From contig CAZTUM010000003.1 in the NCBI GenBank assembly GCA_964616645.1, positions 1-35,455 on the forward strand: a stretch of DNA of 35,455 nucleotides, given 5' to 3'. This document shows, one piece after another, positions 11,836 through 27,558 of the stretch. Both the position numbers and the translations under genes were made by a program. The notes under the pieces were generated by a model. It was not told the DNA's origin, ran no database searches, and worked only from the letters and a program-made list of their open reading frames with translations. This DNA is from an uncultured Muribaculaceae bacterium (GTDB lineage: Bacteria > Bacillota_I > Bacilli_A > RF39 > UBA660). The stretch's first letter is position 1. Each line of letters starts with the position of its first letter.

Positions 11836-14800
11836 ATGAAAAATATAAAAATGAAAACTTGGTCTTTGATATTTAGTATTGTTACCGCGGGGATTTTAAT
11901 TTTATCAGGTACATATGCTTTATTTAAATGGACTTCTAGTGGAACAAATGTAGCAATTGATGCTCATTTAGGAGTAGTATATGAAAGAGAACATGAGACT
12001 TTAACTGGGACGTTAAATCCTACTAATAGTAAGGAAGGTGGACTAAGTACTAATATTACATTATGGACTACAACAAAGAAAACAAAAGTATATGGAACGT
12101 TATTCTTTTCTGTTAAAAGTATACCATCACCATTGAATACTAATAGTATGTTAAAATGGGAATTATGGAATGATAATACTAAAATTAGTAGTGGAGATTT
12201 TAATGGCTATGGAGAGGGGGATATAGTAGAACTTTTTAAAGATATAGAATTATCTAATGAAGAAGATATATTTACATTATATGTATGGTTAGATGATGAT
12301 TGTATAACTACAACAGATATAAAAGGTACTTCGATTGAGATAGATGTAGGAGCTTCAGCGGCACAAATACCAACTAGTGAAAGTTCAATTACTGTTGTAA
12401 ATAATTCACCTTCTCAAACTAATTGGGTAAAAAATTATACTTTATTATTAACCGCGACATCAACAGAATACAATATAACTGGATATGCAGTAACAACTTC
12501 TTCAGATACTCCATCAGCATATACGCAAATATCTAATGCAGGATTAACTTATAATTTGTCACATACAGTAGATGCAAATGGTAACTATTTTGTATGGTTT
12601 AGAAATCAAAATAATAAAATAGCTTATGAGGTTGTAGAAGTAAATAAAGTAGATAATATTAAACCTGTATTAAATAGAAATGGGGATTCTTCTGTTGATA
12701 TTGCTAATTCTAATGCTACGATTGTAATACCACTTAAAATAGTTGATACTCAAAGTGGTATTAATATAGATACATTTACTGATGATGATTTAATATTTAA
12801 AGTTGGAACTACTACTATAAGTCCAACTAAAAGTATTACTTATCAAAGTGTGAGTGATGGAGAATATTCATATTTATTAACTTTAAGTAATGTTACTGGG
12901 AATGGTAAATTAAATATAGAAGCTCCTTCTGGAGTAATAAGTGATACTGTAGGTAATACTAATATTTTAACTACAATTGACCCATTTATTGACATAGATA
13001 ATACTCCTCCAGTAGTCTCTTCTATAGAAGCTTCACAATATTCATCTACAATATCTATAAAAGCAACAGCTACAGATAGTTACGGAGTAGTAGATACTTA
13101 TTGGTATAGTATAGATGGGGAAAATTATTATAGTTCAAATAATTCTAATTATACATTTAATAATGTATCTAATGGTAGTTATACTGCTTATGTATATGTA
13201 AAAGATAAAGCGGGTAATACTTCAAATATAAAAGAACAAAGTGTAGTATTTGATAATGTACCACCTACATTAACATCTTTAAAAGTAACAACTTCTTCTG
13301 GTACATATGCATATGGTAGCGTAATTAATATAAGTGCAATATATAGTGAAAATGTTTTTGCAAGTGATGGAAAGGCAATAAATGCAAGTACTGCTCCAAC
13401 ATTATCATTAAAATTTGGAAATGGAACTTCAAAAAATGCTACATTTGTAAGTGTAAGTGATAATACTATAAATTATAAAGTAGTAGTAGATATTATAGAT
13501 TTAGGTGCTTTAACATTATCATCATATCAAGGTATAGTCTATGATCAAGCTTTAAATAGTTTAAATGTTACAGCAACAGAGTTAGGTGGTAATGCAGTTT
13601 CTGCATCTACAAAAGCAAAAATAGGTACAAATTACTATACAACATTAGCATCCGCGATCGCGGTATCAAGTACAACTAAAAGTATTACTATGGTAAATGA
13701 TACAACAGAGTGTGTAACAATACCAAGTACAAATAATATAACGTTAGATTTATATGGTAAGGTAATAACTTGTGATACATCAAATACATCTGCAATAACT
13801 AATAATGGAATACTTAAAGTAGTATCTAGTCAAACAAATGGTGAAATAAATAGTACATATTATGCAATAAATAATCTAGGTAGTTTAATTCTTACAAGTG
13901 GTAAAATTCAATCTACAAATAATGTTGCAGTATATAATAATTCAACAAAAACTCAAGCTAATGGAGTATCATTATATGTAGATGGTGCTACAGTAATTTC
14001 AACTTCTAATAGTGGAATAAATAACGTAACAACAGGTATAGTTACTGTTGCATCAGGAACCGTAAAAGGGGCATTAGGTGGTATATATAATACAACTACT
14101 GGTACTATAAATATTGGTTTATCTACAGATACACTAAGTACTACTAATCCAGCTGTTTATAATACTACTACATCATCATATGGTGTATATATGAATTCAT
14201 CTGGTACATTAAATTTATATAATGGGGCCATATATACTGCAAATACTAGTGTAGGAACAGCATACTTTAAAAATACATCTACTGTAACTGCAAGAAGTGG
14301 TTATCATATTACAACTGCTACAGATACATTAGGAGGAGTAACTTATAAAAAATCATATTTGGTAAGTGGAACAACTCAAATTCAATATAGAAAAGGTACA
14401 AGATACTGTGAATCATATACATGTTCTGGTACAAAGCAATCTTCAGAAACATCATCTTGTGTATATTCTTCTCCAGGAAGTGGTTGGACAAAACAAAGTG
14501 GAAGTTGTGCTTCTAAAACAGTTATATCAGGGACTTGTCAATGTGCAGGGGGGTCTGTAGCTAAGACAGATTGTGAAAAAGCGGGATTTAAAAGTGATAC
14601 CGATTGCTTTATTTGGTGTACAGGAGAAATGGGAGGTTCAACAGGTGAAGGTTGTACATCAACTAAATCTTATGCATATTACTATACTAAAACAATAACT
14701 GAATCTTATGAAAATACTGGTCAATCTAGTTGTAATTCAAGTGAAACTGCTACTTGTGAATCATATGATGTAGATTATGGTTCTTGGGGTACAACAGATT

Positions 14801-14889
14801 ATAGTAGTTATACATATTGTCAAAAAAGGACTTGTAATTTATCTTCTGAAGGTGTAGTAACAACGTGTGGTTCTGCTGGAAGTTGTTAG
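11836..14889 (+). CDS. Giant secreted/cell-surface protein (signal-anchor, Ig-like modules, beta-helix-like Thr/Asn repeats, Cys-rich tail)
   Basis: 1017 aa with RBS TAGGAGCG. The N-terminal hydrophobic segment ends in SGTYALFKW, which resembles the TasA/camelysin SipW-type signal motif GGGT-x-A-x-F. Modules are delimited by DNIKP, DNTPPVV and DNVPPTL. Aa ~590-830 consist of short repeats rich in T/N/G/S, typical of parallel beta-helix adhesins. The last 160 aa (14407-14886) hold 16 Cys. Confidence 0.8.
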   Translation: MKNIKMKTWSLIFSIVTAGILILSGTYALFKWTSSGTNVAIDAHLGVVYEREHETLTGTLNPTNSKEGGLSTNITLWTTTKKTKVYGTLFFSVKSIPSPLNTNSMLKWELWNDNTKISSGDFNGYGEGDIVELFKDIELSNEEDIFTLYVWLDDDCITTTDIKGTSIEIDVGASAAQIPTSESSITVVNNSPSQTNWVKNYTLLLTATSTEYNITGYAVTTSSDTPSAYTQISNAGLTYNLSHTVDANGNYFVWFRNQNNKIAYEVVEVNKVDNIKPVLNRNGDSSVDIANSNATIVIPLKIVDTQSGINIDTFTDDDLIFKVGTTTISPTKSITYQSVSDGEYSYLLTLSNVTGNGKLNIEAPSGVISDTVGNTNILTTIDPFIDIDNTPPVVSSIEASQYSSTISIKATATDSYGVVDTYWYSIDGENYYSSNNSNYTFNNVSNGSYTAYVYVKDKAGNTSNIKEQSVVFDNVPPTLTSLKVTTSSGTYAYGSVINISAIYSENVFASDGKAINASTAPTLSLKFGNGTSKNATFVSVSDNTINYKVVVDIIDLGALTLSSYQGIVYDQALNSLNVTATELGGNAVSASTKAKIGTNYYTTLASAIAVSSTTKSITMVNDTTECVTIPSTNNITLDLYGKVITCDTSNTSAITNNGILKVVSSQTNGEINSTYYAINNLGSLILTSGKIQSTNNVAVYNNSTKTQANGVSLYVDGATVISTSNSGINNVTTGIVTVASGTVKGALGGIYNTTTGTINIGLSTDTLSTTNPAVYNTTTSSYGVYMNSSGTLNLYNGAIYTANTSVGTAYFKNTSTVTARSGYHITTATDTLGGVTYKKSYLVSGTTQIQYRKGTRYCESYTCSGTKQSSETSSCVYSSPGSGWTKQSGSCASKTVISGTCQCAGGSVAKTDCEKAGFKSDTDCFIWCTGEMGGSTGEGCTSTKSYAYYYTKTITESYENTGQSSCNSSETATCESYDVDYGSWGTTDYSSYTYCQKRTCNLSSEGVVTTCGSAGSC
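13652..13663. repeat. Perfect 12-bp GC palindrome CCGCGATCGCGG inside the giant gene
   Basis: Read directly. It encodes S-A-I-A within LASAIAVSS and is the densest GC patch in the window. Confidence 0.95.
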
Positions 14890-14899: not shown

Positions 14900-15625
14900 A
14901 TGAAAAATATATTTAATAAAGATAATTATAAATTACTTTTAATACTTCTAGTGTTGGTAATTGGGGCGATATTAATTATCGTCCTAATGAATACTGATAA
15001 GGATGATGATGGACCTATAACAGATTATAATGATGAAATTGCTAATGTAATACCATCTGAAGTAGAAAAATTATATAGAATAATTACTAATAATACTTGT
15101 AATGTTAATTATGGTTTTGATTTTACAGATACTAATAGTATTAAAGTAGAAGATATGGATGATGAAATAATTTTAACTATTATATTTAATAATTTAAAGG
15201 AGAATAATATTCTTAATTCTAAATTTAGTAAAGAAGAATATATTACTTATGCTTCTAATATATTAGGTACTAATATAGATATACCTAATGATTTTAGTAA
15301 TTTTAATTATGATGGTAATGTTTATAAAATAGAGAATAATAATATTATAAAAGATACTTCAATATGTCAAAATGAAGTTAATTATAAGAGTGTTTTATAT
15401 AGTTATTCATATAACTCTAATGATTTGAGTGTATATGTAAATTATATTATGATAAAAGATAATATAGCATATAACTTAGATGGTAGTATAATTGGTAATT
15501 ATTCTAAGGAAAAAGAAGAGTCTATTATGAATAGCGCTACTAGTTATGTATATAATTTTAAAAAGAATATTAATGGTTATTATTTAACTGAGGTATCTAA
15601 AGCTCTAGTTGAGATTAATAAATAA
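14900..15625 (+). CDS. Membrane-anchored hypothetical protein (241 aa)
   Basis: Start set at ATG 14900. Its RBS TAGGAGG overlaps the stop of the upstream gene. One N-terminal TM helix (LLLILLVLVIGAILIIVLM) followed by an extracytoplasmic domain with no recognisable family. Confidence 0.6.
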   Translation: MKNIFNKDNYKLLLILLVLVIGAILIIVLMNTDKDDDGPITDYNDEIANVIPSEVEKLYRIITNNTCNVNYGFDFTDTNSIKVEDMDDEIILTIIFNNLKENNILNSKFSKEEYITYASNILGTNIDIPNDFSNFNYDGNVYKIENNNIIKDTSICQNEVNYKSVLYSYSYNSNDLSVYVNYIMIKDNIAYNLDGSIIGNYSKEKEESIMNSATSYVYNFKKNINGYYLTEVSKALVEINK

Positions 15626-15663
15626 ATATTAATAAATAGAAATATAATATTATAGGTGATAAG

Positions 15664-16680
15664 ATGAAAAGAATATCATTTATAGTATTTTTTCTTTTAT
15701 TAATAATTACTATATTATATTATTTTACAAATAATAATAATATTAAGACTAATACAACTAGTAGTGAGAATATAGAAGTATATTATCCTTCTTATAATAT
15801 AACAAAATTAGATAATTATATAGATTCATTTGTAGAAGAGATAATTAAATTACATAAACAAGAATATAATGGTGCTAAATTATATTTAGATTATGATATT
15901 GATGTAGATAATAAAAATATACATACAACTTTTTATACATATATAGAAAATGAAAATATATTAAAAACAAATATTACTAAAATAACTTATAATAAAATAA
16001 ATAAAGAAATAATTAAAGATAACGAAATATTGGTTACAAGTAATAATTATGATTTTATAAATAATAGAATAATAGATAAAGATAAAAAATTAGTTGCGTT
16101 AACTTTTGATGATGGACCTAGTTATAATACTATGAAGATAGTAGATATATTAAAAAAATATAATTCTACTGCAACATTTTTTGTAGTGGGTCAAAAAGTA
16201 GATAAATATAAAAATACTATTAAATATTTGAGTGATAATAATATGGAAATAGCAAATCATACATATACTCATAAATTATTATCAAAATTAGATGAGACAA
16301 GTATTTTAAAAGAAATAAAAGATACTCAAGAAGCAATATATAAAATTACTAATACATATCCTACATTATTTAGACCAAGTTATGGTACAGTATCTTCTAA
16401 GTTAAAGAGGATATCACCTATGCCAATTATAATATGGAATTTAGATACACTGGATTGGAAACATCATAATTCTAAGAAAATAGCAAATAAAATACTATCA
16501 AATGTTAGTGATGGTGATATTATTCTAATGCATGATACATATACTGCGAGTAGAAATGCTGTTGAAATAGTAATACCTAAATTAAAGGAACAAGGATATG
16601 AAATAGTTAGTGTTAGTGAATTATTTTATTATAAAAATGTAGTACCTATTAATGGTAAATATTATGGATATATTAAATAA
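15664..16680 (+). CDS. Polysaccharide/peptidoglycan deacetylase (NodB homology domain) with N-terminal TM anchor and an extra domain
   Basis: NodB motifs LTFDDGP, HTYTH and FRPSYG, plus LMHD near the C-terminus. About 140 aa of unassigned sequence lie between the TM anchor and the catalytic domain. Confidence 0.88.
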   Translation: MKRISFIVFFLLLIITILYYFTNNNNIKTNTTSSENIEVYYPSYNITKLDNYIDSFVEEIIKLHKQEYNGAKLYLDYDIDVDNKNIHTTFYTYIENENILKTNITKITYNKINKEIIKDNEILVTSNNYDFINNRIIDKDKKLVALTFDDGPSYNTMKIVDILKKYNSTATFFVVGQKVDKYKNTIKYLSDNNMEIANHTYTHKLLSKLDETSILKEIKDTQEAIYKITNTYPTLFRPSYGTVSSKLKRISPMPIIIWNLDTLDWKHHNSKKIANKILSNVSDGDIILMHDTYTASRNAVEIVIPKLKEQGYEIVSVSELFYYKNVVPINGKYYGYIK

Positions 16681-16699
16681 TATATCTTGAAAAATATAA
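16666..16699 (+). repeat. 34-bp direct repeat, left copy
   Basis: GGATATATTAAATAATATATCTTGAAAAATATAA. It includes the last four codons and the stop (GYIK*) of the deacetylase gene. It is identical to 19766-19799. Confidence 0.97.
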
Positions 16700-16740
16700 C
16701 TTATAATTAACTAAAAAAGAAGCTTATTAGTTTATTATAA

Positions 16741-16785
16741 AAAAATCTTTTAGTTTAATTTTTAATAAATTAAAAAAAGATTTTT
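16741..16785. terminator. Long AT-rich bidirectional hairpin just inside the left end of the insert
   Basis: AAAAATCTTTT (16741-16751) pairs with AAAAGATTTTT (16775-16785). An inner TTTAATTT/AAATTAAA pairing extends the stem. It lies 3' of the minus-strand gene that ends at 16826. Confidence 0.55.
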
Positions 16786-16825
16786 TAAATTATATTAATA
16801 AATAATAATGTGGAATTTTGATTGT

Positions 16826-18058
16826 TTAAAAATTTAATGTTCCAATATAGAAATGATTATTGTTACTTTTTAATAAAATTGTTTTATTATTTAGAACATA
16901 AAAAGTTGGATATATATATTCATCTTTATATTCGCCTATTAATTGTACACTGTAAAATTTATTTTCATTGGGATTATATATGCTCCATTTTTCTAAATTA
17001 TGAAATAACATATTATCATTAAGAAATGGTGTTCTTCCGTAAAGTACATTAGAATCTGTTTCTTGTATTTTATTTGTAATAAAATTATAGTATGTTGTTT
17101 TCCCAGTTTGACTAATTTGTGTGTTGATTTTTCCAATATACAATCCTTTGTTATTTTTTTGAAAACTTGTTATAATCCAATCTTCTTTTAGGTTATTTGA
17201 AAATATAATAGATTCTTCATTATTTTTTAAATCAATTGATAGGATATCTTGTTTATTTTTATAATCTGTAGTACAAATTAACATTTCATTTTCAAAAACT
17301 TGAATTTCAAATATGCTACATAACATTGTCCCACTTTGATTTAGAACATCTCCATTATATTCTTTTAATGTAGTAATTTTTTCATCTTCTATTTGATATA
17401 TATTTAATGTTTGTTTTCTTTCTATTATTATATCATTAATAGATTTAAATTTATCATTTATAGTTACTACATACAATTTATTATTTGTATTTGAATAATG
17501 AAATATAGGAGTAGATATTGGGTCAAGTAATGTCCCTTCTTTTAAAATTTTACCATTATTTAATGTATTTTCAAATTTTATTATTGACCAATTATAACTT
17601 ATATTATCTAAAGGATTTTTAAATATTAATGATGCATATATTGTATTATCTAATATAAAATAGTTTAATATTCTATAATTTGAATCAAAATTGTAAATTT
17701 CAAATTTATCTTGTTCAAAGTCATATTTAAAAATATATTTTGTAACAAATAAATCATTATTGTTTGATGTATCAATTATATCACCGTATATATAATTTTG
17801 ATTTACTTTATTTATGGATACTTCATAAGTGTCTTTTAGGTACTTTTTAAGTTTATTATTTAAGCTGCTATCTGTTAAAGTAATGGTGTATGAAGTAGTG
17901 GAATTTTTTTCTATTTTGCTTTCTATAATATCTGTTTTAGTATTATTGGTTTCTAAATTGTTATTATAAATTTTTGTAAAAAATAATGATATAAGAACAA
18001 ATAATATCAAGAAACACATAAAAAATATGTCTCTTGAATTAAAATTTAATTTTTTCAT
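16826..18058 (-). CDS. Membrane-anchored 410-aa protein with a repetitive beta-rich ectodomain (beta-propeller-like, unassigned)
   Basis: N-terminal TM helix (FFMCFLILFVLISLFF). After it come recurring hydrophobic-strand plus Asn/Asp-turn units such as NNKLYVV, NEMLICTTDY, NKGLYIGKIN, NDNMLFHN, NNKTILLKSNNNHFYIG. The ATG lies 2 nt after the stop of the upstream gene and has no SD of its own, which suggests translational coupling. Confidence 0.7.
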   Translation of the reverse strand: MKKLNFNSRDIFFMCFLILFVLISLFFTKIYNNNLETNNTKTDIIESKIEKNSTTSYTITLTDSSLNNKLKKYLKDTYEVSINKVNQNYIYGDIIDTSNNNDLFVTKYIFKYDFEQDKFEIYNFDSNYRILNYFILDNTIYASLIFKNPLDNISYNWSIIKFENTLNNGKILKEGTLLDPISTPIFHYSNTNNKLYVVTINDKFKSINDIIIERKQTLNIYQIEDEKITTLKEYNGDVLNQSGTMLCSIFEIQVFENEMLICTTDYKNKQDILSIDLKNNEESIIFSNNLKEDWIITSFQKNNKGLYIGKINTQISQTGKTTYYNFITNKIQETDSNVLYGRTPFLNDNMLFHNLEKWSIYNPNENKFYSVQLIGEYKDEYIYPTFYVLNNKTILLKSNNNHFYIGTLNF

Positions 18059-18060
18059 AA

Positions 18061-18840
18061 TTATTGAATAATATATCTATTTGATGAACTAACTGTGTTA
18101 TATACATTAGTTGCTGTATCCATATGTTCTCCTAATACACTTCCATTACCATAACTACCATACCAAGTATCAACATAATATATATAATTAATACCTGTGC
18201 TATCTCCAAATGCTGCAGTATATGTGTATCCATTAACAGTTAAGTAGTGTCCTAACATTGTTCCATTATACATTGCTAAAGAACTTGTATTAGCATGTAA
18301 AATAATTGGTTTGTTTGAACTAATTCTATTTTTTACTAAAGTAGAAAATGTAGATGAAGTGTAATTTGAGCCTAAAACATAACTGTAGTTTTGTGATGTG
18401 TAATTATTAAGTGCATTTTTTATTGCATATACGTATGTTCCATTTGTAGAATTTGTTCCCATATAGCTAGCATATGTTGATTGACTAGATGATGTTCCAT
18501 TTAAATATTGAACTACTTGTTTAACGTTTGCGGGTCCACAATAGTAGCTATTTTCTTGTTGATAATTTGTTATAGATAGTTTTGAGACAAAATATCTTGG
18601 TTGAATTACATTTTTACTTAATGATTCCAATTCATCATCAATTTTTAATAAATATTCATTAGTAAATAATGTCCCATTTGAGCAAGTAATGTCTAAATCA
18701 TTTGGGTCTGTATTTTTTATAATGTAATCATATTCTTCATTGGTATAAATTTCACAGTTATTATTTGTATCTGCTAAAACTGATTTTGAAAATGCGAGTA
18801 CACAAATTATAGAAAATATAAGTAATTTTTTTAAATTCAT
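18061..18840 (-). CDS. Secreted papain-fold cysteine peptidase (C39-like)
   Basis: Start set at ATG 18840, behind the strong RBS AAAGGAGGA. Signal peptide MNLKKLLIFSIICVLAFSKSVLA. Q-x5-C pattern QQENSYYCGPA (oxyanion Gln plus catalytic Cys), followed by GHYLTVNGY (His) and YYVDTW (Asp), spaced as in C39-type peptidases. Confidence 0.65.
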   Translation of the reverse strand: MNLKKLLIFSIICVLAFSKSVLADTNNNCEIYTNEEYDYIIKNTDPNDLDITCSNGTLFTNEYLLKIDDELESLSKNVIQPRYFVSKLSITNYQQENSYYCGPANVKQVVQYLNGTSSSQSTYASYMGTNSTNGTYVYAIKNALNNYTSQNYSYVLGSNYTSSTFSTLVKNRISSNKPIILHANTSSLAMYNGTMLGHYLTVNGYTYTAAFGDSTGINYIYYVDTWYGSYGNGSVLGEHMDTATNVYNTVSSSNRYIIQ

Positions 18841-18950
18841 AAAATTCCTCCTTTTAAAAAGTAAGTACTTACAATTGTAATTATACATTTTATAATAAAA
18901 AAAACTACCCATTATTAGTAGAAAAAACTCTTCTTTTGGTGGAATATATT

Positions 18951-19583
18951 CTATTTGCAAGTAAATTCGTTTTTTTGTTCCATTCCAATTTTATCTGAAT
19001 GGATTATATTAATTAATTCTGAATTTTCAAAGATTATATTTGGAGTTTCTGATATATATGATTTATTTATGTTAAATGTGAATTCATAATTTTCTCCTAT
19101 TTTTAAATCTTTAGATATTGTTTTTGGTAATTTAATTGTGTAGATGCCTTCTACTTGGTATTCTTTAAATGTTACATACAAGTAATTTTCATCATTACTT
19201 GAATTTATATTACTTATATTATAAGTTTTTATTAGTATGCAATCATAGTTGTTAATATTATTATCTTTAGTTTTTTGAGTGATGGTAAAAAATATTATTA
19301 AAATTGTTAGTAAACCAATACTAATTATTATTGGTATTACAATTATTTTCTTTTTTATGTGGTAAATTTTCTTTTTATCTTTTCCATCTAATAATTCTTC
19401 TATTGAAATTTCTAATATTTCACATAATTTTTTTAAAATTGATATATCTGGGATTGAATTTCCACATTCCCATTTGGAAACAGCTTTAAAGCTAACTCCT
19501 ACAAGCTCTCCAAGTGTTTGCTGAGTTAATCCTTTTTCTTTTCTTTTTCTTTTGATATATTCTCCAATTTTTTGATTATTCAT
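18951..19583 (-). CDS. Membrane-anchored XRE-family HTH regulator with a small extracytoplasmic domain
   Basis: Start set at ATG 19583 (RBS GGAGTGA). HTH_3-type LTQQTLGELVGVSFKAVSKWECGNSIPDISILKKLCEILEISIEELL. A TM helix IIVIPIIISIGLLTILIIFF follows, then ~100 aa of beta-rich ectodomain with Cys near each end. Confidence 0.8.
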   Translation of the reverse strand: MNNQKIGEYIKRKRKEKGLTQQTLGELVGVSFKAVSKWECGNSIPDISILKKLCEILEISIEELLDGKDKKKIYHIKKKIIVIPIIISIGLLTILIIFFTITQKTKDNNINNYDCILIKTYNISNINSSNDENYLYVTFKEYQVEGIYTIKLPKTISKDLKIGENYEFTFNINKSYISETPNIIFENSELINIIHSDKIGMEQKNEFTCK

Positions 19584-19765
19584 GTATATCACTCCAATAC
19601 TACAAACTTTTGTTATATATTTATTATACATTATTTTTTTTGATAATATTAAAAAAAATTACGCATATAATATTTTACTGAAATTTGATAAGAATATTGA
19701 AGGTTTATATTTTTACTAAAAAATGGATAATGTTTTAAAAAGATAATTTCTAAGTGTTAAACTTG

Positions 19766-19799
19766 GGATATATTAAATAATATATCTTGAAAAATATAA
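19766..19799 (+). repeat. 34-bp direct repeat, right copy
   Basis: Identical to 16666-16699. The flanking bases differ on both sides (T vs G at -1, C vs T at +35). Confidence 0.97.
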
Positions 19800-19815
19800 T
19801 TATTTATTATATAAT
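19787..19815 (+). promoter_or_regulatory. plsC-operon promoter (TTGAAA-17-TATAAT) straddling the repeat boundary
   Basis: TTGAAA at 19787-19792 lies inside the repeat. TATAAT at 19810-19815 lies outside it, after a 17-nt spacer. Confidence 0.55.
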
Positions 19816-19844
19816 TATAATGTTTAAGAAGTAAGGTGATTCTA

Positions 19845-20408
19845 ATGGGAAACAAATTATATAGATTTGTAAGATTTATAGGTGTACCAATATTTAAAAT
19901 ATTATATAGACCTACTATTATAGGAAGTGATAATATTCCAAGTACTGGTAATGTTGTTTTAGCGGGTAATCATACAAATAATTTAGATTGTGCTTTATTA
20001 ATAACATCAACAAAAAGAACAATACATTTTTTAGCTAAAAATGAACTTCATAAAGGTAAACTAGGATGGTTTTTTACTTCTATGGGGACTATTCCAGTAG
20101 ATAGAAAACATAAAGATAAAATGGCTCTTATAAGTGCTATAGATACTTTAAATAATGGTAATGTAATTGGGATATTTCCAGAAGGGACAACAACTAAAGA
20201 TGGGAATATACTTCCATTTAAAGTAGGGGCGGTAGTTATGGCAAATCGTACAAATTCAAAAATAGTACCATTTAAAATAGAAGGAAAATATCGTATATTT
20301 AGAAAAAGTGTAAAAATAATTTTTGATAAACCATATTATGTAGGTGATGATATAGAAAAAGCTAATAATATTTTAAGAGATAAAATTATTAAACTAAAAG
20401 CAAAATAG
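19845..20408 (+). CDS. plsC: 1-acyl-sn-glycerol-3-phosphate acyltransferase-like (PlsC family)
   Basis: Start set at ATG 19845 (RBS AAGGTGA). HX4D motif NHTNNLD, plus FPEGTT and PFKVGAVVMA blocks. Confidence 0.8.
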   Translation: MGNKLYRFVRFIGVPIFKILYRPTIIGSDNIPSTGNVVLAGNHTNNLDCALLITSTKRTIHFLAKNELHKGKLGWFFTSMGTIPVDRKHKDKMALISAIDTLNNGNVIGIFPEGTTTKDGNILPFKVGAVVMANRTNSKIVPFKIEGKYRIFRKSVKIIFDKPYYVGDDIEKANNILRDKIIKLKAK

Positions 20409-20426
20409 TTAGAAAGAAGTTAATAT

Positions 20427-22187
20427 ATGAAAAATTATTTAAATAAATTATATAATTATATAAGAAGAAGATTTAGTAAAAGAAATTTAGATAATGATGA
20501 TTTAATAAAAGAAAATTTAGAATATCCAGATATTAGTTTGTATGAATTATTAGAACAAACTGCATCTAAGTATCCAAATAATCTTGCTTATGAATATTAT
20601 GGTCATGTTGTAACATATAAAGAATTTATAAAAAAAATTAAAACTGTTGCATCTGCGCTTAAAAAAATAGGTGTACAAAAGGGTGATAGGGTAACTATCT
20701 GTATGCCTAATACACCTAGTGCTATTATGACTTTTTATGCTACTAATATGATAGGGGCTACTGCGAATATGATACATCCATTATCATCTGAAAATGAAAT
20801 ATTATTATATTTACAAATGTCTAAGAGTAAATATTTATTAGTGATAGATGCAAATTATGGAAAAATATGCAATATCATGGATAAAGTAGAGTTAAATCGT
20901 GTTATAGTGAGTATTCCAAATGAGGAAATGACGAATACAAAGAAAGCGTTATATTGGTTTTTTAAAGGGCATAAATCTAAAATTAAACGTCATTCTAATA
21001 CAATGTTATTTAAAGAATTTTATCATTTAGGTAATCCAAATGAGGATAATCTTTTAGTTAAGCAAAAAGGGGCTGATGAAGCTGTAATACTCTATAGTGG
21101 GGGAACAACAGGAGAACCTAAAGGGATACTTTTATCTAATAGAAATTTTAATGCAGAAGCAATAGAATGTAAGGTTATGTGTAAGACTGCTAGAGAGGGG
21201 GATTCTATTTTAGCTATAATGCCAATATTTCATGCATTTGGTTTAGGAATATGTATTCATACTGCATTATATATAGGTATGAAAGTAATATTAATTCCTA
21301 GTTTTAGTGCAAAAAAATTTGGCTCTTTAATAAAAAAATTTCATCCAAATTTTATTGTAGGAGTACCAACGTTATTCGAGGCATTATTAAAAAATAATAA
21401 TCTTAAGAAGAATGATTTATCATGTGTAAGATGTGTTATTTCAGGTGGAGATAATTTATCTTTGGTACAAAAGAAAAATATTGATGAATTTTTAGAAAAG
21501 CATGGTTCAAAAGCAAAAGTAAGGGAAGGATATGGATTAACTGAATGTGTAGGAGCAAGTTGTTTAACTCCATATAATGAATATAAAGAATGTAGTATTG
21601 GGAAACCATTACCAGATATAACTTATAAAATAGTAAAACCAACTACACATGATGAGGTACCACGAGGTGTAGATGGAGAGATTTGTATAAATGGGCCAAC
21701 TGTAATGTTAGGATATTTAGATGATGTTAAAGAGACTGCGAATGTATTAAGATTACATGATGATGGTAAAATTTATTTACATACAGGAGATTTAGGGTGT
21801 ATGGATGAAGATGGATATGTATACTTTAAGCAAAGATTAAAAAGAATGATAGTTTCATCAGGATATAATATATATCCAAGTCATGTTGAAAATATTTTAA
21901 ATTCTCATTATGCAGTATTAACATCTACTGTAATAGGAATAGACCATCCATATAAAGTGCAAGTAGCAAAAGCGTTTATAGTTTTAAAAGAGGGTTATAA
22001 GCCAACATATAGTATAAAAAAGAGTATAAAAGAACACTGTAACAAAAATTTAGCAAAATATTCAATACCATATGAATATGAGTTTAGAGATGAACTGCCT
22101 AAGACTAAGGTAGGTAAAATTGCCTATAAAGAATTAGAAGAAGAACACAAAAATTTAAATGGGGTAAAAGATATAAACGAGGTGTAG
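20427..22187 (+). CDS. AMP-dependent synthetase / long-chain fatty-acid--CoA ligase
   Basis: Adenylate-forming core motifs ILYSGGTTGEPKG, GYGLTE, GDLGCMDEDGYVYFKQRLKRMI and the terminal PKTKVGKI. Confidence 0.88.
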   Translation: MKNYLNKLYNYIRRRFSKRNLDNDDLIKENLEYPDISLYELLEQTASKYPNNLAYEYYGHVVTYKEFIKKIKTVASALKKIGVQKGDRVTICMPNTPSAIMTFYATNMIGATANMIHPLSSENEILLYLQMSKSKYLLVIDANYGKICNIMDKVELNRVIVSIPNEEMTNTKKALYWFFKGHKSKIKRHSNTMLFKEFYHLGNPNEDNLLVKQKGADEAVILYSGGTTGEPKGILLSNRNFNAEAIECKVMCKTAREGDSILAIMPIFHAFGLGICIHTALYIGMKVILIPSFSAKKFGSLIKKFHPNFIVGVPTLFEALLKNNNLKKNDLSCVRCVISGGDNLSLVQKKNIDEFLEKHGSKAKVREGYGLTECVGASCLTPYNEYKECSIGKPLPDITYKIVKPTTHDEVPRGVDGEICINGPTVMLGYLDDVKETANVLRLHDDGKIYLHTGDLGCMDEDGYVYFKQRLKRMIVSSGYNIYPSHVENILNSHYAVLTSTVIGIDHPYKVQVAKAFIVLKEGYKPTYSIKKSIKEHCNKNLAKYSIPYEYEFRDELPKTKVGKIAYKELEEEHKNLNGVKDINEV

Positions 22188-22189
22188 AG

Positions 22190-23602
22190 ATGAAGATAGG
22201 GAAATATTATAAAGAAGAATTTATAAATAATTATAAATTATTTAAAGATAAGAAGACGAGAAAAAGTCAAATACCAAATATATTAACATTATCAAGATTA
22301 TTTTCTCCTGTAATAATTATTCCATTGGTATTATGTAGAGAGTATTTACTTGCTTTAATATTTGTAATAATATTTGCTTTAACAGATCTTTTGGATGGAT
22401 ATATAGCTAGAAAATTTAATTATGTTAGTAAATTGGGAAAAGAAATTGACCCTATATGTGATAAAATATTTCTAGGTAGTTTACTTATTCCACTTATTAT
22501 GAAGTGTCATTTCTTGTTATTAAGTATATTTTTAGAATTAATAATAAGTATTATCTCTATTATAAATAAGATTAAAGGGTATAATACTAAAGTTAATGGG
22601 TTTGGTAAAGTTAAAACAGCATTTATTTATACTTTGATTAGTTATACATATTTATCTTTATTTATAAGTATTAATGATATATTATTTATAATTATATATA
22701 TTATTACTACAATATTACAAATATGTACTATTATTACTTATTTAAAGAGAACTATAATTAAAGAAAAAGAAGATAATATTGTTATAAGTAGTTTTGGTTA
22801 TAAATTAATAAAACCAATATTTAAAATATTATTTAATTCTTATTTTAGACCAAAAGTAATTGGGAAAGAAAATATTCCTGCTGAAGGGGCGTTTATATTA
22901 TGTGGGAATCATACTAATGTTCATGACCAATTTCCTATTATGATGAATACGAAAAGGGTTATTCATTATATTGCTAAAAAAGAGTATTTTGATTCAAAGA
23001 TGGGATTTTTCTTTCGTTTTGTAGGGCAAATACCTGTAGATAGAGAGATAAAGGATGCTAATGCTAAAAATGAAGCGTTGGAGGTATTAAAAAATAATCA
23101 TGCTTTAGGTATATTTCCAGAAGGTACAAGGAATGTTTTAGTATATAAACAAGATGAGGTTAACAAATTATATGAATATGTAAAAGATAAGATTTCTAAA
23201 AACCAATTTATTGATATACTTAAAAATAATCAGACTAAATTATCTCAAATACATCTTTTAGATAAATTAAAAAGTGAAAAAAGAATAACTAATATGGATT
23301 ATTCAGAATATTTACTTGATTTACCAAATAAGTTAAAAACTCTTTTTGAAGAGAATAAAATAACAGAAGAAGAGTATAGAGATTCATATTTATTAGAGTT
23401 TAAATATGGTGCAGTGTCATTAGCAAGTAAAACAAATACTAAAATATTACCATATGCCACATGTGGCACATATGCTCATCATAGTAAAAACTTGCAAGTA
23501 GTAATTGGTACTCCTTTTAAAATAGATGGTTTATCACTTGATTGTGCAAATAAAATGTTAAGAGATAAAATTATAGATATTATTATAGAAAATAGCAAAT
23601 AA
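22190..23602 (+). CDS. Fusion protein: CDP-alcohol phosphatidyltransferase domain plus PlsC-type acyltransferase domain
   Basis: The N-terminal membrane domain carries a perfect D-x2-DG-x2-AR-x8-G-x3-D-x3-D motif (DLLDGYIARKFNYVSKLGKEIDPICD, 22385-22462). The C-terminal domain has HX4D HTNVHD (22910-22927) and FPEGTRN. About 88 aa are inserted before FKYGAVSLA, compared with the upstream stand-alone PlsC. Confidence 0.75.
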   Translation: MKIGKYYKEEFINNYKLFKDKKTRKSQIPNILTLSRLFSPVIIIPLVLCREYLLALIFVIIFALTDLLDGYIARKFNYVSKLGKEIDPICDKIFLGSLLIPLIMKCHFLLLSIFLELIISIISIINKIKGYNTKVNGFGKVKTAFIYTLISYTYLSLFISINDILFIIIYIITTILQICTIITYLKRTIIKEKEDNIVISSFGYKLIKPIFKILFNSYFRPKVIGKENIPAEGAFILCGNHTNVHDQFPIMMNTKRVIHYIAKKEYFDSKMGFFFRFVGQIPVDREIKDANAKNEALEVLKNNHALGIFPEGTRNVLVYKQDEVNKLYEYVKDKISKNQFIDILKNNQTKLSQIHLLDKLKSEKRITNMDYSEYLLDLPNKLKTLFEENKITEEEYRDSYLLEFKYGAVSLASKTNTKILPYATCGTYAHHSKNLQVVIGTPFKIDGLSLDCANKMLRDKIIDIIIENSK

Positions 23603-23617
23603 CTCTTTGCTTTTTTT
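23594..23617 (+). terminator. Rho-independent terminator of the lipid operon
   Basis: AGCAAA (23594-23599) pairs with TTTGCT (23606-23611) around a 6-nt loop, followed by a T-run of seven. The stem spans the stop codon. Confidence 0.6.
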
Positions 23618-23657
23618 ATATATGTATGGTAGAATATAGACTATAGGAGAGTGTAAG

Positions 23658-25589
23658 ATGAGAAAGAAAAATGGCTTTACTTTAATAGAGTTATTAGCAA
23701 CATTACTAATTATTTGTCTTATAACTACTATTGCAGTTATAACAATCAAAGATAATATAGAAAATACAAAGGATAAAGCGCAAAAACTTACTCAAAATGC
23801 TCTTTTTCAAGCTTCAAGTGCTTATGTAGCAGAATATAAAACAAATAGTACAGATTGGTATACAGAGTATACTGAAGAAGATGATGCATATAAAGAAACT
23901 GGTAATGAATATGCTTGTACTACAATTCAAATGTTAATTGATAAGGGATACTTAAAAAATAATATAATAGATGCAAAGACAAATGAAAGAATAAACCATA
24001 ATACTCAAATACAAATAATAAGAAATAAAACTACTAAAGTAATTTTTAAAAAAGTTATAATGTCTAGTCAAGTATGCAAAGAATTAGATAGTGTAATTCC
24101 TAGTGTAACGTTTACTCCAGATGGTAGTAATTTGGTGTATAAACCAACAGTAACAATAACATCAATAACAGGTGAGTCTAATGTTAAATCTATGGCTTAT
24201 TATATAAAAAAAGATAATAATAAATATCAAGAGGTTACTACTACTTCTTATTTAGGGGAAATAACTATAGAAGAAATAGATGGAGAAAGTATTAGAGTAT
24301 GTGCTAATGTAACAAATGGTATTGATGTAAGTAGTGGAGAGGTATGTAGTAATTATTTTAATGTTGATAATACTCCTCCAAAAATAGATAAAATAGAGAA
24401 TGTTAATGGTTCTAATATTGTTAATGTAACAGTAATAGAAAAAAATATTGATAGTTATTGTTTAACAAAAGAAAATAATATTAATAATTGTATATGGGTA
24501 AATATTACTTCTAATATATTTAATATAAATGTAGAAGAAGAGGGAGATTATTATATATATATAAAAGATAAAGTAAATTTAATTAGTAATGATGAAAATA
24601 ATAAAGTAAGTATATCTATAGATAAGGATATACCTTCAGTTATATTTACTCCTAATGGGACTGATATATGGAGTAAAAGTATAGACGTAAAGTTAACCAA
24701 AATTACAGGCACATCGGGAATTAAAAATACAAATTATTATATTAAAAAAGATAATATTAAATATAGGGAAAATACTAGTACAACTACAGATGATGAAATA
24801 ATTACAGTAGATGTAGAAGGTAGTAATATATATGTTTGTGCAGTAGTAGAAAATAAAATAGGTATAACAAGTGGAGAGATATGTAGTAATATATATAAAA
24901 TAGATAATACTCCACCTAAAGTAGAATTATCTTCTTTAAATTTTTCTGGGGAAATACAGATAGATGTAATTGAAGATAATATTGATAGTTATTGTATAAC
25001 AAAAGATAATGATACTGATAATTGTACATGGATAGAAACTTCTGAAAATAATTTTAATACTACTGTTACAGAAGAGGGGACATATAATGCATATGTTAAA
25101 GATAAGGCTAATAATATAGGGACTTCTTCTATAAATATTATACTAGAAAAGACTATAACTGTAGATTGTAGTGTATCTAATACAAATGGTGTTTGTACAA
25201 TATCAGAAAATATAGATGATATAGGAGAAATTAGTAGTATTACTACTTCAAATGGTGTTATAAGCTATAGTTTAAATGAAAAGACTATAACATTAACTTT
25301 TAAACAAGGTATTTATACTCAAGGTACGGCGTTGGAATGTAATTGTACTACTACTGTTACAGAAGAATGTACATGTGGGCAAAGATGTTGTACTCCTCAA
25401 GGGGGAGGGTCAGGAGGCTCTTCATATTGCGAAAGTGGAGGTGGAGGTAGTAGTTGTTTAGTTTGTTATGATGTTTCCTGTGTTTCGGGGTTATGTGATT
25501 ATAATGAGTGTAAAGAGAAAAAAACAACTACTTGTAATACATGCTATACATATCAATATCAAGCTACAATAAAATATAAACCAGAATAG
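23658..25589 (+). CDS. Giant modular type IV pilin-like protein (prepilin-type N-terminal cleavage/methylation signal)
   Basis: MRKKNG/FTLIELLATLLIICLITTIAVI is a canonical class III signal: Gly-1, Phe+1, Glu+5, then a hydrophobic alpha-1 helix. The protein is 643 aa, with a pilin-like head (~aa 30-140), two tandem ~178-aa two-domain units and a Cys/Gly-rich tail (14 Cys in aa 561-629, nt 25338-25544). RBS TAGGAGAG. A -10-like TAGAAT preceded by TGG lies upstream. Confidence 0.8.
   Translation: MRKKNGFTLIELLATLLIICLITTIAVITIKDNIENTKDKAQKLTQNALFQASSAYVAEYKTNSTDWYTEYTEEDDAYKETGNEYACTTIQMLIDKGYLKNNIIDAKTNERINHNTQIQIIRNKTTKVIFKKVIMSSQVCKELDSVIPSVTFTPDGSNLVYKPTVTITSITGESNVKSMAYYIKKDNNKYQEVTTTSYLGEITIEEIDGESIRVCANVTNGIDVSSGEVCSNYFNVDNTPPKIDKIENVNGSNIVNVTVIEKNIDSYCLTKENNINNCIWVNITSNIFNINVEEEGDYYIYIKDKVNLISNDENNKVSISIDKDIPSVIFTPNGTDIWSKSIDVKLTKITGTSGIKNTNYYIKKDNIKYRENTSTTTDDEIITVDVEGSNIYVCAVVENKIGITSGEICSNIYKIDNTPPKVELSSLNFSGEIQIDVIEDNIDSYCITKDNDTDNCTWIETSENNFNTTVTEEGTYNAYVKDKANNIGTSSINIILEKTITVDCSVSNTNGVCTISENIDDIGEISSITTSNGVISYSLNEKTITLTFKQGIYTQGTALECNCTTTVTEECTCGQRCCTPQGGGSGGSSYCESGGGGSSCLVCYDVSCVSGLCDYNECKEKKTTTCNTCYTYQYQATIKYKPE
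24087..25142 (+). repeat. Intragenic tandem duplication (two ~178-aa units) within the pilin-like gene
   Basis: Unit 1 begins DSVIPSVTFTPDGS, unit 2 begins DKDIPSVIFTPNGT. They align throughout: YYIKKDN, VCA.V.N.I...SGE.CSN....DNTPPK, NIDSYC.TK.N...NC.W, EEG.Y..Y.KDK.N. Confidence 0.8.
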
Positions 25590-25602
25590 AAAGAGGGTTA
25601 TT

Positions 25603-25998
25603 ATGAAAAGTAATTCAAAAATTAGTTTATTTGCTATATCTTTTTCGATATTGGCATTATTATCAACAATATGTTTATACTATTTTATGATAAATAAGTA
25701 TAATGCTTTAAATGACAAAATAAATGAATTAAATCAAAATAATTCTTCAAATACACCAGTAAATATATCTTTAGTATTAAATGAATTTGCTAAGAAGTTG
25801 ATTAATGATAAAATAATTACTAAAGATAAAGCTATAAGTAATGAAATTATAATTACTTTTAATGAAATGAAAAATCAATATGGACTTGATGTTAGTTTTG
25901 ATTGTGTAGAAGAAGATACATATATAAAATATATATTTATGGAAGATACAGAACAAGTAAAAGATACTATAATAGGGCAAAATTGTTATGAAAAGTAA
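25603..25998 (+). CDS. Membrane-anchored small protein (131 aa), paralog of the next gene
   Basis: RBS AGAGGG and an N-terminal TM helix. The C-terminal ~70 aa align with the 97-aa lipoprotein (KLIND..IT...AI..E, conserved Cys pair, TII...C). Confidence 0.55.
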   Translation: MKSNSKISLFAISFSILALLSTICLYYFMINKYNALNDKINELNQNNSSNTPVNISLVLNEFAKKLINDKIITKDKAISNEIIITFNEMKNQYGLDVSFDCVEEDTYIKYIFMEDTEQVKDTIIGQNCYEK

Positions 25999-26281
25999 GT
26001 TAATACTAGTAATATTAATTATTATATTAACTGGATGTAATAATGTATTAGATAATGATGATGATATAAATACATATATATATAAATTAATAAATGATTC
26101 AAAAATTACAATACAAGAAGCTATAAATAGTGAAGTTAATTTAACATTAAATGATTTAATAAATAAATATAATTATATTTATACAGGAAATTGTGATAAA
26201 GATAAATCAACGATAAAAATTGTTTTTGATGATACAGGTAAAGTGATACAAACAATAATAGATTTAAGTTGTAATAAATAA
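25988..26281 (+). CDS. Small lipoprotein (97 aa), paralog of the previous gene
   Basis: Lipobox ILTGC. Overlaps the previous gene by 11 nt. Shares the KLINDSKITIQEAINSE ... C ... TIIDLSC pattern with it. Confidence 0.55.
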   Translation: MKSKLILVILIIILTGCNNVLDNDDDINTYIYKLINDSKITIQEAINSEVNLTLNDLINKYNYIYTGNCDKDKSTIKIVFDDTGKVIQTIIDLSCNK

Positions 26282-26297
26282 TTTTAATTAGAATTAA

Positions 26298-26326
26298 TTG
26301 ACAAATTAATATAAAAATATTATGAT
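26298..26326 (+). promoter_or_regulatory. Near-consensus sigma-A promoter (TTGACA-17-TATGAT)
   Basis: TTGACA at 26298-26303, a 17-nt spacer, TATGAT at 26321-26326, upstream of the 26350 gene. Confidence 0.65.
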
Positions 26327-26349
26327 ATAAATAGGTTTGAGGAGGTATT

Positions 26350-26826
26350 ATGAAAAAAATATATAAATTAGGGATTATTATTATATGTCTATTTGTATTT
26401 ACTGGTTGTAATAATAAACAAGAAGAAAAAGAACAAACAGAATTTACTATTGGTGAGACTATTTCTATTAAAAATTTTGATATAACATTCTTAAATTATT
26501 CTATTAGAAAAGCTATAAATACTAATGAAAAACATCAAGATTTAATTTTCTTAGAAGTAAGTTTAAAAAATACTAGTTCACAAAGTCAAAAGTTTAAGAC
26601 TAGTAGTTATAAAGTATATGGACCAGAAAATACAGAGTTAGATATTATATCATCTGCTAAATATACTACATCTGCGAATAATGTAGGTAATATACGTGGT
26701 GGAGGTATTACGAGTGGACATTTAATCTTTGAATATGCAGGATATGGGAAGTATTACTTAGAGTTTTCTAATACTAAAGGTAAAAAAGTAACTTTAATCA
26801 TGGATGTATACGAAGAAGTAGAATAG
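26350..26826 (+). CDS. Lipoprotein with Ig-like DUF4352-type domain (tentative)
   Basis: RBS GAGGAGG and lipobox VFTGC. Its ~130-aa beta-rich domain has the pattern F.I.....I.....L.V...N.S, typical of DUF4352. The family call is tentative. Confidence 0.5.
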   Translation: MKKIYKLGIIIICLFVFTGCNNKQEEKEQTEFTIGETISIKNFDITFLNYSIRKAINTNEKHQDLIFLEVSLKNTSSQSQKFKTSSYKVYGPENTELDIISSAKYTTSANNVGNIRGGGITSGHLIFEYAGYGKYYLEFSNTKGKKVTLIMDVYEEVE

Positions 26827-26868
26827 TAAATCCTAATGGACTTACTATTTTTTTCTAGGAAGGAGTAT

Positions 26869-27558
26869 ATGAATAATAGTTTTAAAAATTTACCTAATGA
26901 AGAAAAGCCACGTGAAAGATTAAAAAAATATGGAAGAGATAATTTGTCTAATGAAGAATTACTTGCAATTGTATTAAAGACAGGTACTCATGATATACCA
27001 GTAGATGAACTGGCTAAAAATCTTTTAGTAGAATTAGGTAGTATTACTAAATTAAAGGATGTTTCACTAGCTAAATTATTAAGTATAAAAGGTATAGGAG
27101 AGGTAAAGGCGTTAACTTTATATGCCATGATTGAACTGGGAAAGAGAATATATAAAAATGTAAATCTTACTAAAAGGTATAAACTTAGTAATCCAGAAGA
27201 TATAATTAATTATTATAATGATACATTAATAGATAAAAAGCAAGAAGAATTTCATGTGTTATATTTAGATAGTAATAATAATATTATTACTACAAAAAGA
27301 TTATTTATAGGTACAATTAATCGTTCGATAGTTCATCCAAGAGAGATATTTAAAGAAGCGTATTTAAATTCTGCTTGTAAAATAGTATGTATTCATAATC
27401 ATCCTACTGGTAATATAACACCTAGTAAAGAGGATATATTTATAACAAGAACTATTGATGAAATAGGGAGAATTCATGATATAAAATTATTAGACCATTT
27501 AATTATTGGGAAAGATAGCTATTTTAGTTTTTATGAGAATAAATATTTAAAAAATTAA
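26869..27558 (+). CDS. radC: RadC-family JAB/MPN-domain protein
   Basis: Start set at ATG 26869 (RBS GGAAGGAG). N-terminal PRERL..G...LS..ELLAI.L.TG, helix-hairpin-helix IKGIGEVKA, and the JAMM motif HNHPTGNITPSKED. Confidence 0.9.
   Translation: MNNSFKNLPNEEKPRERLKKYGRDNLSNEELLAIVLKTGTHDIPVDELAKNLLVELGSITKLKDVSLAKLLSIKGIGEVKALTLYAMIELGKRIYKNVNLTKRYKLSNPEDIINYYNDTLIDKKQEEFHVLYLDSNNNIITTKRLFIGTINRSIVHPREIFKEAYLNSACKIVCIHNHPTGNITPSKEDIFITRTIDEIGRIHDIKLLDHLIIGKDSYFSFYENKYLKN

Follow-up and report, generated by a model that had tools for sequence, protein, structure and literature searches.

A 34-bp direct repeat of host origin brackets a probable operon insertion in an uncultured gut bacterium

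How does a complete operon come to lie, opposite in orientation to its neighbours, between two perfect copies of a 34-bp sequence made up of the end of one host gene and part of the promoter of the next? The question is raised by a 35,455-nt stretch of DNA from an uncultured bacterium (GenBank assembly GCA_964616645.1, contig CAZTUM010000003.1, positions 1 to 35,455; GTDB lineage Bacillota_I, RF39, UBA660), which we call the window; coordinates are those of the whole window, and L-numbers denote the related loci that were compared with it. A three-gene segment here separates a polysaccharide deacetylase gene from plsC, and an earlier sequence-only reading had taken the flanking repeats for an attL/attR pair left by integration of a small circular cassette. 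Our results indicate that the segment is very probably a recent, one-off insertion of a non-autonomous, complete operon that is native to the clade, accompanied by a duplication of 34 bp of host sequence. As to how that duplication arose, we slightly favour a target-site-type duplication over att-site integration in trans, and we class the locus with known insertion phenomena, as an unusual variant, namely a long target-derived duplication around operon-sized DNA that has no element features. The parts of the locus on which the argument turns are as follows.

16666 to 16699, plus strand: left repeat copy, comprising the final four codons of the deacetylase gene with its stop, a 6-nt gap, TTGAAA and 7 more nt
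19766 to 19799, plus strand: right repeat copy, which supplies the -35 hexamer of the plsC promoter
16667 to 16686, and also 19767 to 19786: near-perfect 9-2-9 palindrome GATATATTA-AA-TAATATATC, inside each repeat copy
16700 to 19765, minus strand: unique inserted segment (3,066 bp), one operon opposite to its neighbours, absent from the same site in L002, L066-68 and L128
15664 to 16680, plus strand: polysaccharide (peptidoglycan-type) deacetylase gene, intact (Pfam Polysacc_deac_1, 9.5e-35; NCBIfam PdaB/PgdA-like matches)
19848 to 20408, plus strand: plsC-type acyltransferase gene, intact (Pfam Acyltransferase, 2.9e-26)

The repeat and the empty site

The 34-mer GGATATATTAAATAATATATCTTGAAAAATATAA is present in two exact copies, both on the plus strand and 3100 bp apart, and no third copy was found in the window when up to 3 mismatches were allowed. 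Two matches to it arose in 0 of 100 shuffles. The window DNA is about 24% G+C, and the chance level was set with 2000 random pairs of 530-bp segments lying about 3.3 kb apart in the same window: the longest exact direct match in these null pairs was usually 9-12 bp and reached at most 28 bp once pairs that sampled the 34-bp repeat itself were excluded. In a mismatch-tolerant version of the test the repeat pair scored 34, compared with a null maximum of 16. Identity between the copies ends at both edges, a 49-nt extension at 88% identity being AT-rich noise. The 34/34 match, its spacing and its abrupt edges, all described earlier from the letters of the window, are thus borne out by exact-match search and by null tests.

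The left copy is in frame from codon 335 of the deacetylase gene and encodes G-Y-I-K-stop, while the TTGAAA of the right copy forms, together with a TATAAT 17 nt downstream, a sigma-70-like site at 19787-19815 (11/12); the same TTGAAA-N17-TATAAT stands upstream of plsC in two related species (L066 and L002). The roles that the sequence-only reading gave to the two copies, gene end on the left and promoter element on the right, therefore hold. The insert went into a spacer of 64 bp between the deacetylase gene and the plsC promoter; in the relatives the whole spacer between deacetylase and plsC is 64-75 bp, and because the duplication spans both the deacetylase stop and the plsC -35, which lie 6 bp apart, a complete deacetylase gene is left on one side of the insert and a complete promoter on the other. 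The duplication makes the insertion harmless to both neighbours and, whichever way it arose, turns the locus into a natural experiment in which two closely set signals were both preserved. The TTGAAA of the left copy has no properly spaced -10 in the cassette and probably does not fire into it. Between 11836 and 35422, as had been pointed out, no minus-strand open reading frame (ORF) reaches 100 aa other than the three enclosed genes.

Three related species carry the junction uninterrupted, with the deacetylase gene followed directly by plsC.

L002 (a Bacilli metagenome-assembled genome): deacetylase 61% and ligase 76% identical at the amino acid level
L066-L068: deacetylase 65% and ligase 83% identical at the amino acid level
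L128: deacetylase 58% identical at the amino acid level

Synteny between L066-L068 and the window extends over about 16 kb; upstream synteny is already gone in L128. When the window was compared with L066 by blastn, the left block ended at 16696 (L066 7027) and the right block began at 19766 (L066 6997), such that the single L066 site at 6997-7030 aligns to both window copies. A five-way alignment of the junctions gave the same picture, the left window junction tracking the relatives as far as the repeat end and the right junction doing so from the repeat start onward. The orthologous L066 site, GGACATATTAATTAATACATCTTGAAAAATAATT, is identical to the 34-mer at 28/34 positions, and in L002 there is little similarity; the target is poorly conserved between species. 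Because one native site in L066 matches both copies, the repeat is the host's own gene end and promoter, that is, a duplicated target. It is neither a dispersed repeat nor an imported motif: apart from the orthologous single site, no copies with up to 6 mismatches were found in 1.58 Mb of related loci, and the 34-mer had no match among viral contigs (IMG/VR). A common dispersed repeat, which the sequence-only reading had named as an outcome that would undo its proposal, is accordingly rejected for the window, the related loci and the viral contigs alike. That reading had also stated that removing one copy and the insert would recreate a seamless junction, and uninterrupted orthologous junctions are just what the three related species have. 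Taken together, these comparisons strongly support the 3,066-bp segment as a genuine insertion. Recombination or slippage between the copies would be expected to restore the ancestral junction exactly, so that the insertion should be reversible in principle.

The insertion also appears to be young. The two copies differ at 0/34 positions, whereas either differs from L066 at 6/34; with about 6-8 differences expected between copies as old as the species split and none seen (P(0) <0.003), the duplication is probably younger than that split. Under the assumptions of neutrality and no gene conversion, the event would fall within roughly the last third to half of the L066 divergence (95% bound). No strain of the same species with an empty site was found in the collections searched, where the next deacetylase is 65% identical. 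Exact-protein look-ups placed the organism in one public run only, SRR10277277, for which a search of the literature returned nothing.

That run offers a second assembly of the locus, in the form of Logan unitigs built at k=31. Three of them match the window exactly: L001 corresponds to 15620-16695, L069 (3126 bp) to 16670-19795 and L127 to 19770-28900. Each ends exactly 30 nt (k-1) inside the repeat, from which it follows that a real 34-bp repeat joins two incoming and two outgoing arms, and that the ends of the cassette truly abut the 34-mer. L069 runs from one repeat to the other without a branch, which argues that the genome holds no second identical copy of the cassette elsewhere; duplicative template switching from such a copy is unlikely on the same ground. 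A graph at k=31 looks the same for an integrated cassette and for an empty site plus a free 3.1-kb circle, a point that bears on two of the alternatives discussed below.

The inserted operon and its relatives

Nothing found on the insert would allow it to move or replicate by itself. No recombinase or transposase was found in the insert or in the whole window, no replication gene was found in the insert, and searches with Pfam, NCBIfam and PHROG detected no decayed mobility genes or remnants in it. No terminal inverted repeats pair the insert ends, since in the best candidate (I19, 75% complementary) one of the arms lies in native flank. The absence of terminal inverted repeats and of integrase, transposase and replication genes, reported earlier from the sequence, was upheld by these searches, and the insert is not a self-mobile element; the idea that it might be a fossil found no support, the insert having no decayed mobility genes. 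No tRNA, tmRNA or Rfam target was found. A phage or satellite origin is unsupported, in that the family of the C39 peptidase encoded on the insert has no IMG/VR match and PHROG returns only generic helix-turn-helix (HTH) and weak endolysin-domain matches; an anti-phage defence island is likewise unsupported, PADLOC giving no match for genes 2 and 3 and only generic HTH similarity for gene 1. The insert instead comprises one operon with its signals.

18951 to 19583, minus strand: gene 1, membrane-anchored XRE-type HTH regulator, 210 aa (Pfam HTH_3, 2.4e-14)
18061 to 18840, minus strand: gene 2, secreted papain-fold cysteine peptidase, 259 aa (Peptidase_C39_2, PF13529, 8.6e-13; N-terminal signal-like helix)
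16826 to 18058, minus strand: gene 3, N-terminal transmembrane helix and all-beta propeller by predicted structure, 410 aa (397 aa from a later start)
19623 to 19652, minus strand: predicted operon promoter-like site, TTAATA-18-TATAAT (consensus scan, 10/12)
16740 to 16786: AT-rich inverted repeat with a 12-bp stem, AAAAAATCTTTT / AAAAGATTTTTT, 40 nt past the gene 3 stop, a candidate bidirectional terminator

The HTH domain of gene 1 occupies residues 1-70 and is followed by one transmembrane helix near residues 86-108, as read from the translation, and by an extracytoplasmic tail of about 100 aa; the gene is conserved beside the C39 gene in other loci. In gene 2, Q95, C101 and H198 are invariant across 19 homologs. 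Its AlphaFold2 model has a papain fold (predicted local distance difference test score, pLDDT, 86), and the Foldseek neighbours of that model include an endolysin catalytic domain, the pseudomurein endoisopeptidase PeiR, a phytochelatin-synthase-like enzyme and ComA/PCAT peptidase domains; the PHROG matches of this gene are to endolysins, and weak. Gene 3 had no match in Pfam, NCBIfam, PHROG or PADLOC, and its AlphaFold2 model (pLDDT 85) resembles WD40-like propellers at TM-scores of about 0.45-0.5. The non-coding ends of the insert measure 126 and 182 bp. The hairpin in the first of these was read from the sequence and is partly contained in the inverted-repeat list; the terminator scan, which needs G+C pairs, did not call it. 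At the other end, the promoter-like site falls within the stretch (to 19658) that aligns at about 79% to the operon copy in L054. Within 110 bp of the same right non-coding end, upstream of the HTH gene, GATAA(T/G) occurs four times on the plus strand (19642, 19687, 19726 and 19742), and no part of the window is richer in the motif save a cluster near 24.9 kb; the motif is not conserved upstream of the HTH gene elsewhere, and its copies may be candidate operator sites or arm-type sites.

By composition the insert is not foreign. A comparison of cassette and host, which had been proposed as a check, found a match: G+C content, G+C at third codon positions and codon usage are within the host range, on which ground a foreign-composition reading was rejected, and the tetranucleotide distance of the insert ranks just 4th of 65 segments. 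Homologs are common in human-gut metagenomes (peptidase 55-84% and propeller protein 44-73% identity) and nearly always form the same two- or three-gene unit, which occupies eight or more other chromosomal positions in related low-GC gut Bacilli, several of them besides the four listed here.

L054: operon adjoins a PspC/LiaF-like operon
L058: operon lies between a large helicase gene and Fic genes
L070: operon lies between PAP2 and PBP2B-MraY-FtsW
L073: operon adjoins FtsEX

Against the closest copy (L054, 79%), the window cassette shows nucleotide homology over 16826-19658 only, that is, over the genes and about 75 bp of promoter region. No shared termini were recognisable between operon copies, their non-coding ends aligning in low-complexity sequence only. 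At the amino acid level the cassette is 72% (HTH), 84% (peptidase) and 69% (propeller) identical to its closest relative, and the flanking housekeeping genes are 53-83% identical to those of the closest syntenic species, about the same divergence. Given this similarity, the operon is best seen as a long-standing member of the lineage's gene pool that moved, and none of the sampled organisms looks like a recent donor. Its neighbours are often cell-envelope genes (PspC-LiaF-like, PAP2, PBP2B-MraY-FtsW, FtsEX and, in the window, deacetylase/PlsC), which hints at an envelope-related role. The cargo thus represents a widespread, uncharacterised envelope module of low-GC gut Bacilli, in which a membrane-bound XRE regulator is predicted to accompany a secreted papain-fold peptidase and a membrane-anchored beta-propeller.

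We then asked of 15 distinct operon contexts whether flanking repeats accompany the operon. Only the window (34 bp) and L070-72 rose above the null; the remaining 13/15 were at chance, scoring 10-13 where the null maxima were 12-19. In L070-72 an exact 21-mer, TTTATTATATTTTAAAATTAA, brackets the operon (L070 6910-6930 and 10131-10151, 3221 bp apart), each copy lying in a spacer 30-50 bp upstream of the start of a flanking gene; repeats of at least 20 bp occur in about 0.35% of null pairs. This 21-mer is unrelated to the 34-mer, consists of A and T only and does not fold, and PAP2 adjoins PBP2B in no collected locus that could serve for an empty-site comparison. It is suggestive only of a second independent target duplication. 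A 20-mer at L120 was rejected as a flanking repeat, being two similar ribosome-binding-site/leader sequences. Because the contexts share no flanking core or repeat sequence, no conserved att core appears to travel with the operon. The possibility that the operon is cargo of the integrase island in L058 was rejected as well, as no repeats bracket it together with the integrase, which lies 4.7 kb away. That island, downstream of the operon in L058-L065 (about 15000-18800), is variable between strains: Fic genes are followed by two unknown ORFs or a KAP NTPase and then by a tyrosine integrase that is 93% identical between island variants, with no repeats linking the island to the operon.

Origin of the duplication

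We tentatively suggest that the duplication was made at the moment of insertion, through a staggered opening of the target around an AT-rich hairpin followed by fill-in, with the activity supplied in trans. In such a scheme two single-strand breaks, spaced by 34 nt, would open the target, one of them 1 nt outside the foot of the AT-rich hairpin or cruciform; the operon DNA would be joined into the opened target, and filling of the two single-stranded gaps would yield the 34-bp duplication. A candidate for the activity in trans is a structure-directed DDE transposase like those of IS1182 or IS1634, a type that is present in the clade and able to make duplications of 20 bp or more, and an alternative would be capture of a free DNA fragment during break repair by the host. 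The native origin of the duplicated sequence, the poor conservation of the target, the cleanness of the operon and the possible second case in L070 are all points in favour of this scheme. The target would also have been prone to fold: as single-stranded DNA the 34-mer has a folding energy of -3.7 kcal/mol (z = -3.5; 0/200 shuffles fold as well), and 8/10 pairs of its palindrome are kept in L066. A second AT palindrome, TATAATTAT-N7-ATAATTATA, lies at 19795-19819, spanning both the plsC -10 and the outer edge of the right-hand repeat, so the native spacer holds two adjacent hairpin-prone elements.

Target duplications of this general kind do occur among related bacteria. An insertion sequence (IS) of 1.59 kb in L106 (2717-4304), with terminal inverted repeats CAGAGTGTTGACAAA... 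/ ...TTTGTCTACACTCTG and split DUF772 and DDE_Tnp_1 ORFs, is flanked by a 22-bp duplication, GAATTGAATTTAAATCAATTCT, which is a terminator-like palindrome (DNA fold z = -2.8) and has its empty site in L108 at about 4318-4340. Another IS, of 1.68 kb, in L080 (9514-11193) has perfect inverted ends of about 30 bp, GGTAAAGTGAAAAGTTAAATTCCACTTTCC, and a 334-aa ORF without a Pfam match; a duplication of about 12-13 bp, TTAATAATAAAAA, lies on either side of it, and the corresponding empty site is in L058 at about 13501-13513. The IS with the 22-bp palindromic duplication indicates that long target-duplication chemistry exists in these bacteria. Elsewhere, IS1549 and IS1634 make duplications of 8-514 bp, for which there is no accepted model (PMC2266710), and under the structure-directed model put forward for IS1272, a member of the IS1182 family, a cruciform is attacked at its feet and its entire stem-loop becomes duplicated (PMC5678879). 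The sequence-only reading therefore went too far in setting 34 bp well beyond the length of transposase target duplications, as the IS1549/IS1634 range, the palindromes duplicated by IS1182 elements and the 22 bp of the clade's own IS all show. The IS1182 (IS1272) and IS1634/IS1549 elements resemble the window in duplications that are target-derived and tens of bp long, perhaps in the AT-rich palindrome or hairpin that these span, and in the presence of the family in low-GC Bacilli and Mollicutes; they differ in that they carry a transposase and terminal inverted repeats, and the cassette carries neither.

This interpretation must be held cautiously, however, as several observations weigh against it. 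The insert has no terminal inverted repeats or transposase, and to our knowledge every DDE transposase needs terminal inverted repeats; nor do we know of any precedent for a 34-bp duplication around non-IS DNA. The fit to the hairpin is partial: the right edge of the repeat overshoots the hairpin by 13 nt and runs 5 nt into the second palindrome, and because the left edge alone sits at a foot, a model in which the whole stem-loop is duplicated fits half of the structure. Palindromes with arms of at least 9 bp are not enriched across the window (12 observed, 10.6 expected). The closest copy of the operon is just 79% identical at the nucleotide level. The L070 21-mer does not fold, and it may have arisen by chance, being AT-only and having no empty-site control. 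In addition, direct repeats of 15-60 bp at gene 3' ends are most often att sites of tyrosine recombinases, and the search for an integrase covered the 35-kb window, such that a cognate integrase elsewhere in the genome is possible.

If a target duplication is nevertheless what occurred, then some activity pastes operon-sized DNA into compact spacers while keeping both neighbours working, and this would amount to a low-cost route of gene-order change and gene gain outside the standard catalogue of mobile elements. One may go further and postulate an undescribed route, requiring no terminal inverted repeats, that moves operons into AT-rich, hairpin-prone spacers and duplicates 20-35 bp of the target; it might use an IS1182- or IS1634-like transposase, or some other host enzyme, that captures non-IS DNA, and its traces, each left independently, would be the repeats of 34 bp in the window and of 21 bp in L070-72. 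We regard so general a route as unlikely.

The explanation that comes close behind target duplication is that the 34-mers are attL and attR, a circular cassette with an identical 34-bp core having integrated at the 3' end of the deacetylase gene through a tyrosine recombinase encoded elsewhere. The segment would then be a recombinase-less, cis-mobilisable cassette, excisable in trans, similar to the cis-mobilisable elements (CIMEs) of streptococci or the pseudo-staphylococcal cassette chromosome (pseudo-SCC) elements. We consider this somewhat unlikely, although much about the locus is familiar from such elements. The length of the repeat, its position at a gene 3' end, the restoration of that gene end and the abrupt loss of identity are classic for tyrosine-recombinase islands; the inverted repeat in the core can be read as 7-6-7; tyrosine integrases are present in the clade; and a circle plus an empty site would also fit the Logan graph. 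Pseudo-SCC cassettes of staphylococci are recombinase-less, flanked by repeats at the 3' end of an intact gene and movable in trans. CIMEs of the Streptococcus families of integrative and conjugative or integrative and mobilisable elements are likewise small, integrase-less cargo between direct repeats over an intact gene 3' end, movable in trans, and by definition have lost their integration and transfer genes and kept attL and attR (PMC5704250).

The resemblance has its limits. In both of these groups known integrases have been proven to use the repeats as att sites, at conserved targets (fda, rlmH, tRNA), and the cassettes usually adjoin or derive from intact elements and often keep remnants of them, whereas for the window no remnant, sister element or cognate integrase was found. 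The clean operon, with short non-coding ends and no decayed mobility genes, speaks against an att-based origin, and a clade-wide chromosomal operon of host composition would be atypical cargo. A target conserved at 28/34 positions in L066, and hardly at all in L002, would be unusual for a dedicated att site. Although close relatives were thinly sampled, no integrase was found at the deacetylase/plsC junction in any locus examined, and the site holds no element in L002, L066-68 or L128. Other copies of the operon share no core and, bar L070-72, have flanking repeats at chance level, and the L058 operon is not bracketed together with the integrase there. Finally, the palindrome is statistically unremarkable in AT-rich DNA, and as evidence of a recombinase core it was given little weight, since such palindromes are not enriched in the window. 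Of the proposal made from the sequence alone, then, the genuine insertion stands, and nothing identifies the repeats as att sites; the 34-mer is native and the operon copies share no core. Should att sites used in trans be the answer after all, the segment would be a very small, clean, recombinase-less integrative cassette in an uncultured gut lineage.

Recombination by host XerCD was also considered. IMEX elements (integrative mobile elements exploiting Xer), which use XerCD at dif, are similarly recombinase-less and bounded by two site copies of about 28-34 bp with an internal inverted repeat; unlike them, the window site lies over a gene end and promoter and not at the replication terminus, there being no inflection in GC skew. 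A dif/Xer site was rejected given that cumulative GC skew rises monotonically across the site, which overlaps a coding end and a promoter, and the 34-mer presumably bears no resemblance to the dif consensus.

A Campbell-type, RecA-dependent crossover is distinctly improbable. Here a non-replicating circle that already carried the 34-mer, for instance an excision product from a conspecific cell acquired by transformation, would have integrated by a single crossover. Repeat, insert and repeat in perfect identity are indeed the topology of an insertion-duplication product, and the 34-mer matches the sequence of its own species rather than that of a relative. The donor circle must nonetheless have carried the host 34-mer, which presupposes an earlier copy of the same structure and leaves the origin of that copy unexplained, and no other strain of the species is on record. 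Homology in Campbell insertion-duplication is normally far longer, and 34 bp is at or below the minimum for efficient RecA-mediated recombination.

It is very improbable that the arrangement reflects assembly ambiguity, with an empty chromosomal site and a separate 3.1-kb circle sharing the 34-mer having been threaded into one contig. The four arms do meet at one 34-bp node at k=31, and the species is seen in one run only. The segment has no replication gene, however, so that no circle would be expected beyond a minor product of excision from an integrated copy; moreover, 34 bp is shorter than reads and than the final k that metagenome assemblers commonly use, and the 35-kb contig is probably read-supported. 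The lack of a replication function and a contig probably built from reads or k-mers longer than 34 nt together make a circle-only reading unlikely, and a circle that shared the exact 34-mer would itself imply recombination at the site. Least credible of all is that the repeat-cassette-repeat structure is ancestral and was lost in related species by recombination between the repeats: such deletions would leave the seamless junction seen in the relatives, but three independent precise losses (L002, L066 and L128) would be needed, ancient copies should show the differences that these lack, and in other species the operon is elsewhere.

Flanking genes

The gene plsC heads a lipid operon of plsC, acyl-CoA ligase and CDP-alcohol transferase/acyltransferase, and the same order is found in L002, L066 and L128. 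L002 (1754-5262) and L128 (4588-8084) carry two tandem acyl-CoA ligase paralogs after plsC, compared with one in the window and in L066. Further out on either side are two related proteins, a 1017-aa Ig-like, Cys-rich protein at 11836-14889 and a 643-aa protein at 23658-25589 with an N-terminal prepilin-type methylation motif (PF07963). The gene for the latter contains internal repeats spaced by about 534 bp (24432-24578 with 24966-25112, 75% identical; also 24184/24721). Both proteins are conserved in L066 yet fast-evolving, at 53% (643 aa) and 63% (1017 aa) amino acid identity.

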